DNA from: Escherichia coli
GTDB lineage: Bacteria; Pseudomonadota; Gammaproteobacteria; Enterobacterales; Enterobacteriaceae
Reading direction: 5' to 3' (one strand)
Assembly: GCF_002854065.1 (NCBI RefSeq)
Contig: NZ_CP024147.1
DNA length: 64,000 nucleotides
Part shown: positions 28,033-28,986 of the stretch, piece by piece
How positions within the stretch are numbered: the stretch's first letter is position 1
How the letters are laid out: the number at the start of each line of letters is the position of its first letter
Notes under the pieces: model-generated
Databases searched by the model: none
Seen by the model: only the letters and a program-made list of their open reading frames with translations
What the model was told of the DNA's origin: nothing
Made by a program: the position numbers and the translations under genes

Positions 28033-28986
28033 ATGACCGAATCAACAACCTCCTCCCCGCATGATGCAGTATTTAAAACCTTTATGTTCACACCCGAAAC
28101 CGCACGGGATTTTCTCGAAATACATTTACCTGAACCACTGCGCAAGCTTTGCAACCTGCAAACCTTACGCCTGGAACCCACTAGTTTTATTGAAAAAAGT
28201 TTACGCGCTTACTACTCGGATGTTTTGTGGTCCGTGGAAACCAGCGACGGTGACGGCTATATCTACTGCGTGATTGAACATCAAAGCTCTGCAGAAAAGA
28301 ATATGGCTTTTCGGCTAATGCGCTATGCCACTGCCGCCATGCAGCGTCACCTGGACAAAGGCTATGACAGAGTCCCGCTGGTGGTGCCGTTGCTGTTTTA
28401 TCATGGCGAAACCTCGCCCTACCCGTACTCACTCAACTGGCTGGATGAGTTTGACGATCCGCAACTTGCCCGGCAGTTGTACACCGAAGCTTTTCCGTTG
28501 GTGGATATTACCATCGTACCTGACGATGAGATCATGCAACATCGGCGTATAGCTCTGCTTGAACTGATTCAAAAGCATATTCGCGACCGCGATTTAATCG
28601 GTATGGTCGACAGGATCACCACGCTTTTGGTTAGAGGCTTCACTAATGACAGCCAGCTACAAACACTGTTTAATTATCTGCTGCAATGCGGCGATACCTC
28701 CCGTTTCACCCGTTTTATTCAGGAGATTGCCGAACGTTCACCACTACAAAAGGAGAGATTAATGACTATTGCTGAACGGCTACGGCAGGAAGGACATCAA
28801 ATTGGCTGGCAGGAAGGTAAAATTGAAGGCTGGCAAGAAGGTAAATTAGAAGGTTTGCAGGAAGGCATGCATGAACAAGCCATTAAAATTGCCTTGCGCA
28901 TGCTGGAGCAGGGTATCGATCGTGACCTGGTGCTGGCAACAACCCAGCTAACCGAGGCCGATCTCGCTCCATTAAGCCTGCAATGA
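28033..28986 (+). CDS. rpnB: Rpn (YhgA-like) recombination-promoting nuclease family protein
   Basis: 317 aa; position after glpC as for yfaD/rpnB in E. coli; PD-(D/E)XK-like N-terminal region ([15 protein letters not shown]) and C-terminal GWQEGK(I/L)EG repeats. Confidence 0.85.
28762..28986 (+). CDS. Putative intragenic small protein (RpnS-like), in frame with the rpnB C-terminus
   Basis: In-frame internal ATG at 28762 preceded by a strong Shine-Dalgarno (aggaga, about 6 nt spacing); would encode 74 aa, [20 protein letters not shown]...LSLQ. Confidence 0.3.

Follow-up and report, generated by a model that had tools for sequence, protein, structure and literature searches.

The stretch of DNA analysed here (64,000 nt from an Escherichia coli genome, contig NZ_CP024147.1; hereafter the window) contains a gene of the Rpn nuclease family in which a second ribosome-binding site and a second start codon appear in frame, well inside the coding sequence. 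The locus therefore raises the question of whether the gene is read twice, once in full and once from the inside, and whether the shorter product would hold the longer one in check. We consider it likely that the gene, rpnE, is a two-proteins-from-one-gene Rpn module, in which the nuclease RpnE-L would be inhibited by RpnE-S, a separately made copy of its own tail, within an L2S2 complex.

The protein encoded by the full-length reading frame is identical to RefSeq WP_032281250.1 and passes the NCBIfam equivalog NF007418 with 715 bits against a cut-off of 583. Its DNA is matched at 100% in E. coli 100416 and in O157:H7 TR01, where the annotation is rpnE, and its counterpart carries the RefSeq gene name rpnE in thousands of genomes; the RefSeq product name is 'ISNCY family transposase'. 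The sequence-only reading had named the gene rpnB. This name had to be replaced by rpnE/yfaD, as the protein shares 92% identity with K-12 RpnE and 63% with K-12 RpnB, the neighbours are glpC and yfaY, and the RefSeq name agrees; orthology to rpnB (yfcI), which lies in the order yfcH-rpnB-hisP, was rejected on the same grounds. The gene is the same as that encoding RpnE-L and RpnE-S in K-12 (yfaD, b2244) and occupies the same position after glpC. The coordinates of the features discussed below are collected in Table 1.

Table 1. Features of the rpnE locus, in window coordinates, and the evidence on which each was assigned.
Feature	Coordinates	Strand	Basis
rpnE (yfaD), full-length CDS, RpnE-L, 317 aa	28033-28986	+	ORF list, DNA match, NCBIfam
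YhgA-like PD-(D/E)XK nuclease domain, Pfam PF04754, residues 8-209	28054-28659	+	Pfam, E=5e-88
Shine-Dalgarno AAGGAG, within codons K240 (AAG) and E241 (GAG)	28750-28755	+	sequence; 6 nt before ATG
rpnE-S, in-frame internal ORF, 74 aa, Met244-Gln317 and stop	28762-28986	+	sequence, identity to K-12 site
Hypervariable repeat array, three 24-nt units of 12-nt/4-aa repeats	28804-28875	+	TRF, repeat search
End of long helix and two short helices (predicted), RpnS/HTH_Rpn_C domain	28876-28983	+	AlphaFold, PF27070 on orthologues

Of the 5426 complete E. coli genomes, 5420 contain a match to a 1193-nt segment with rpnE, in every case on the chromosome and never on a plasmid, and the order glpC-rpnE-yfaY was also found in Citrobacter (locus L005) and Salmonella (L006), while in the Citrobacter-like loci L009 and L012 aldolase and transporter genes adjoin rpnE. 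Because of this distribution, and because the position between glpC and yfaY is the same in Citrobacter and Salmonella, rpnE behaves like a core, syntenic gene more than like part of a mobile defence island. In K-12 the rhm operon and ypaA (which encodes RpnE-Ss) separate rpnE from yfaY; in the window, by contrast, neither ypaA nor the rhm operon (yfaU, yfaV, rhmD, yfaX) is present between the two genes. When the window was compared with an O157:H7 strain that has the same rpnE allele followed by yfaU, identity ended 10 nt past the rpnE stop codon (junction near 28996/28997). In Citrobacter and Salmonella rpnE also lies directly beside yfaY, and both a deletion and an insertion are possible for positions 28987-29036 of the window. 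On the other side of the gene, just past the glpC stop codon, a 14-bp near-perfect hairpin (ATGCCCGGTAAGCA/TGGTTACCGGGCAT) was found at 27852-27881; it may be the stem of a glpABC terminator, but it is without the T-run that the terminator scan requires.

The context of the internal site reads CTA CAA AAG GAG AGA TTA ATG ACT ATT, with the spacer AGATTA at 28756-28761 and the ATG at 28762-28764. The distance from the first base of the gene (28762 - 28033 = 729 nt) equals 243 codons, which places the ATG in frame as Met244, and both reading starts end at one TGA (28984-28986). The earlier proposal of a Shine-Dalgarno sequence about 6 nt upstream of an in-frame ATG at 28762, giving a 74-aa C-terminal protein, proved correct to the base, and the GWQEGK(I/L)E repeats that it had placed in this protein are real at the DNA level, where they appear as the 24-nt units listed in Table 1. 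The same reading had remarked that this is not a new system, and the literature agrees: the internal start and its product have been published for the orthologous K-12 gene, so that an rpnE ribosome-binding site and ATG for a separate C-terminal protein are already known from work of 2019-2023. For each of the five rpn genes a Ribo-RET peak was reported at an in-frame start within the coding sequence, with the internal product of rpnE likened to YpaA and synonymous-site conservation locally raised at yfaD (Meydan 2019, bioRxiv 10.1101/520783). Onc112 and retapamulin signals were obtained for all five genes in MG1655, chromosomal SPA tagging detected the short protein of every one of them, RpnE-S among these, as well as YpaA, and internal transcription start sites were cited for all five (Zhong 2023, PMC10400941). 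These experiments demonstrate that RpnE-S is translated from the orthologous K-12 site. A strict scan of positions 27800-29100 for sigma-70 promoters and terminators found none, and a relaxed hand scan for an internal promoter gave a single weak candidate, TTACCA-16-GATCAT at 28508-28535; the internal promoter reported in K-12 was, therefore, not located from the window sequence.

The RpnE-S of the window has the same Shine-Dalgarno, spacer and ATG as that of K-12, the same Met244 and the same 19 N-terminal residues, but it is 74 aa long instead of 56, and its last ~20 residues differ (…APLSLQ). Its repeat array begins about 15 residues after Met244 and contains 2.6-3 copies of the 24-nt unit; the alignment to K-12 RpnE and YpaA shows four additional tetrapeptides in the window allele relative to K-12 RpnE. 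Among ten E. coli strains RpnE-S was 56, 57, 65, 72, 74, 76, 77 or 88 aa long, and the lengths differ by complete tetrapeptides that are inserted behind GWQEG. The short proteins of the orthologues have 53-81 aa, mostly in steps of 4 aa. The repeat region of the window was found at an identity of at least 99% in at most 49 of the 5420 genomes. For the 74-aa protein AlphaFold predicts, with moderate confidence (pLDDT 75), helices at residues 3-49, 54-61 and 65-68, and the best match of the model in the PDB was E. coli RpnA-S (7TH0; prob 1.00, target-normalised TM 0.75, E=0.029), a match that agrees with a three-helix fold of the RpnA-S type but is not strong for a small domain. A Pfam search of the 74-aa protein did not report the Rpn C-terminal family; in precomputed annotation, PF27070 (HTH_Rpn_C) is present on orthologues.

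The last ~20 residues of RpnE-S (28909-28983) fall into distinct types among the E. coli loci (L003, L004 and L013-L018 included). In strains with two copies, one tail type is found in rpnE and another, ...DRDxVLAATQLSEADLAANNH, in ypaA, and in several strains with a single copy it is rpnE itself that has the ypaA-type tail, which suggests a recombination or fusion between the rpnE and ypaA copies. Of the ten E. coli loci, the O157:H7 TR01 locus (L003) alone shares the tail type of the window; strain 100416 is also a 100% match. In K-12, ypaA (L002 3802-4002) arose by duplication of the rpnE-S unit in tandem and in frame, and the duplicated unit begins exactly at the Shine-Dalgarno sequence (TAA AAG GAG AGA TTA ATG). 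An E. coli protein cluster of 361 aa (P0001) is a read-through fusion of RpnE and YpaA in which Gln replaces the stop, and in many genomes RefSeq lists ypaA as a pseudogene or as 'hypothetical protein, missing N-terminus'.

The nuclease domain of RpnE-L was checked against the list of RpnA mutants of Kingston et al. (Kingston 2017, PMC5350276), and all residues on which RpnA activity depends are retained: D11, D63, E82, Q84, R94 and D165 of the PDDE motif. Three features of the Rpn L/S family are found in the window gene, namely PF04754 with its active-site residues, an internal Shine-Dalgarno sequence and start, and strain-variable 4-aa repeats starting 8-20 residues past the internal Met. 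The AlphaFold model of full-length RpnE was poor (pLDDT 58) and could be read for secondary structure only; it places Met244 near the start of a predicted helix at residues 237-292. A PDB sequence search with the full protein gave a marginal match to RpnA-S (7TH0, E=0.41), next to spurious interferon and flagellar matches that stem from the repeats, and the family matches to FliH, Interferon and Yae1_N were likewise rejected as low-complexity repeat artefacts. PADLOC returned no convincing defence-system model for the window rpnE; it gave a weak match over the tail to a candidate 'putative invertase' model.

In the module that we propose, translation of the full reading frame would give RpnE-L, a YhgA-like PD-(D/E)XK nuclease whose C-terminal tail is helical, and a separate ribosome start at AAGGAG-N6-ATG (28750-28764) would give RpnE-S, the 74-aa copy of that tail; in K-12 the RpnE-S mRNA is probably a shorter internal transcript. 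By analogy with RpnA-S, RpnE-S would dimerise via its long first helix and pair with the identical helix of RpnE-L, and the resulting L2S2 complex would keep the nuclease inactive. The tetrapeptide repeats would set the length of the helix and, through it, the specificity for the partner. One and the same stretch of DNA encodes both proteins, and their repeat number is therefore always matched.

The analogy is drawn from the pairs RpnA, RpnB, RpnC and RpnP2, which are paralogues of RpnE and not orthologues; at the sequence level the RpnE tail matches RpnA-S only weakly (E=0.41). They share with the window RpnE the PF04754 domain and the K240-E241-x-x-M244 architecture of the internal translation initiation site (iTIS), and their short proteins have three helices with variable 4-aa repeats in helix 1, as is predicted for RpnE-S. 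RpnA-S is lost upon the substitutions K240R+E241D+M244L, at the same residue numbers as in the window RpnE (Zhong 2023, PMC10400941). Neutralisation of the toxin by the short form was reported for RpnA, RpnB, RpnC and the plasmid-borne RpnP2, phage defence for RpnP2 only, against T-even phages, and the L2S2 complex and the repeat-number specificity were established within these same four systems; in RpnC cross-neutralisation is lost when an additional repeat is present in one partner only, and repeat variation between strains was reported for all RpnS (Zhong 2023, PMC10400941). The sequence-only reading had considered the site consistent with an intragenic antagonist of a toxic nuclease in an anti-phage context, which is right in kind but goes too far for this paralogue. 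Neutralisation stands for RpnA, RpnB, RpnC and RpnP2, and defence for RpnP2 only, whereas for RpnE both would follow by homology, and the K-12 protein was inactive when assayed. It is on the paralogues that toxicity, neutralisation and complex formation were measured, as was phage defence in the case of P2, and the antitoxin and antiphage reading of RpnE is extrapolated from them; for this strain we infer the translation of RpnE-S, the binding of L to S, the inhibition, any toxicity of RpnE-L and any antiphage role.

The inactivity of K-12 RpnE was observed in recombination, killing/toxicity and SOS assays and was left unexplained by Kingston et al. (Kingston 2017, PMC5350276); the assayed construct still had the internal start. 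The N-terminal 243 residues of the window and the K-12 proteins differ at three positions, L107Q, P155L and Q230E (K-12 residue second). Codons 107 and 155 are found at 28351-28353 and 28495-28497 in the window, and at 3223-3225 and 3367-3369 in the K-12 locus (L002). L107 and P155 are invariant in an alignment of 40 orthologues, are present in 111/111 and 116/116 sequences among the 120 best homologues, and occur in all 8 other E. coli strains sampled as well as in K-12 RpnB. The alleles were counted with 50-nt probes centred on the variant base, for which megablast cannot seed a match if that base differs. The K-12 versions of the probes for codons 107 and 155 matched 355 and 356 of the 5426 genomes, and all of the first 25 matches listed were K-12 or other laboratory-type strains, while the window versions matched 4498 and 5030 genomes. 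Given these two substitutions at otherwise invariant positions, found in few genomes, the sole RpnE ever assayed is an atypical allele, and the window allele has the consensus residues. L107Q and P155L may be the reason for the inactivity of K-12 RpnE, and the window allele, which is without them, may be active. A wider claim can be built on this comparison, namely that RpnE works as a toxic nuclease in the majority of natural E. coli, this strain included, that its reported inactivity is an artefact of the K-12 allele and of the assay, and that the gene is a toxin-antitoxin or defence module of the core genome; we put it forward tentatively and regard it as rather doubtful. If it were true, this strain, with the consensus residues, four extra specificity repeats and no ypaA as a back-up, would rely solely on the intragenic RpnE-S to keep an active RpnE-L in check.

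The assays on K-12 RpnE also bear on the strongest competitor of the two-protein module, according to which RpnE-S is made but rpnE is not a working toxin-antitoxin or defence gene, RpnE-L being non-toxic and RpnE-S being an HTH-type regulator, a modulator of paralogues or a remnant. In its favour, the K-12 protein failed in all three in vivo assays (Kingston 2017, PMC5350276); however, the protein that failed has substitutions at two otherwise invariant positions and was co-expressed with its own RpnE-S, and all active-site residues of RpnA are kept in the window protein. The near-universal presence of rpnE and its synteny across genera are housekeeping-like, housekeeping roles are allowed for by Zhong (2023, PMC10400941), and the RpnS fold is HTH-like. 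The repeats of RpnE-S are nevertheless hypervariable, as they are in the proven pairs, which argues for ongoing selection on the interface between L and S, and for A and B the action of RpnS was reported to be specific to the cognate RpnL (Zhong 2023, PMC10400941). We judge this explanation unlikely, and the L-S module is preferred to it.

The module presupposes that the internal site is used, and the sequence AAGGAG followed by ATG could in principle be incidental Lys-Glu...Met coding sequence that gives rise to no protein of its own in this strain. The frequency of such sites was determined in 46 ORFs of the window that are 150 aa or longer and do not overlap, where 2 of 435 internal in-frame ATGs are preceded by AAGGAG at a distance of 4-9 nt; the second of them, at 25394, is the true start of glpB in an ORF call that was over-extended. 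As ~0.6 sites of this kind are naively expected in a window, the motif by itself is suggestive and not decisive, and the case for the internal start is carried by its conservation together with the published experiments. In the predicted local RNA fold the Shine-Dalgarno sequence and the ATG lie in an unpaired loop, and shuffled controls have more structure than this stretch (z=+0.89). K-12 rpnE has the same 18 nt, CAAAAGGAGAGATTAATG, at the equivalent codon (L002 3634), where ribosome profiling and immunoblotting support the start, and AAAGGAGAGATTAATG, the same as the ribosome-binding site of the window, precedes the free-standing downstream gene ypaA in K-12 (L002 3817), so that the Shine-Dalgarno-ATG cassette of the internal start also heads ypaA.

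Codon usage around the site was compared in eight orthologous loci with 65-78% protein identity from Citrobacter, Salmonella, Superficieibacter and metagenomes. Met244 is present at the equivalent codon in all eight, and AAG GAG in seven, the remaining one having GGG GAC, which is still G-rich. Adjacent synonymous positions, in contrast, vary freely (TCA/TCC, CCA/CCC/CCG, TTA/CTG/TTG, ACT/ACA/ACG/ACC). A single codon is kept in 14 of the 134 invariant columns with degenerate residues; K240 and E241 are two adjacent columns of these 14, and they are the only invariant K/E codons in the rarer, G-ending form. Among the 120 best homologues at the protein level, 118 have the motif K-E-x-L-M-T-I-A-E/D-R-L with the internal Met. 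In E. coli itself, the 50 nt across the Shine-Dalgarno sequence and the ATG are 100% identical in 4455 of the 5426 complete genomes and at least 95% identical in 939 more. This segment was found in 7490 copies in 5394 genomes, and the surplus is consistent with ypaA-type second copies. The retention of the minor codons across genera, next to flanking synonymous sites that vary, shows that the internal start is under purifying selection at synonymous positions, and an incidental origin of the motif is highly improbable. Besides mis-called true starts, the only other internal in-frame ATG in the window with AGGAG at a good spacing is at 47207 on the minus strand, in a 431-aa menF-like ORF (46737-48032); this ATG, 8 nt after AGGAG, would start a C-terminal product of 156 aa and is probably a chance occurrence.

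Two products from one reading frame, the short form opposing or complementing the full-length one, are also known from other genes. In Tn5 the transposase Tnp and its inhibitor Inh arise from one ORF, the inhibitor being made from an in-frame internal start, and share a C-terminal interaction surface. ArcB-C and Cas10d/Cas11d likewise resemble RpnE in giving two products per ORF via an internal Shine-Dalgarno sequence and start, with a short form that shares the C-terminal interaction surface. All three belong to unrelated families and are without the hypervariable tetrapeptide-repeat specificity helix of Rpn. The Tn5 precedent, the RefSeq/NCBIfam product name and the Pfam name Transposase_31 would fit an IS-type transposase whose short product is a truncated transposition inhibitor like Inh, but this ISNCY-family identity was rejected as the least credible of all, because a repeat search at the locus found no terminal inverted repeats flanking rpnE, the gene occurs only once, at a fixed site on the chromosome, in 5420 genomes and never on a plasmid, its neighbours are the same in Citrobacter and Salmonella, and Zhong (2023, PMC10400941), who concluded likewise, found no inverted repeats, target duplications or defined ends in rpn genes and noted that no autonomous PD-(D/E)XK transposase is known.

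As a discovery the locus adds little, since the internal start, its product and the repeat variation were already published. Its practical value lies in annotation: with 'ISNCY family transposase' RefSeq uses a product name that seems misleading, and the nested RpnE-S ORF has no annotation, for which reasons rpnE is missed by defence and toxin-antitoxin surveys. Consensus alleles of the window type are the right material with which to ask whether the near-universal rpnE is an active nuclease/antitoxin pair, and what the role of a core-genome Rpn is. Within the gene, a perfect 12-nt inverted repeat connects the 5' part of rpnE (CCTGCAAACCTT, 28155-28166) with the repeat array (AAGGTTTGCAGG, 28850-28861), and is most likely due to chance.
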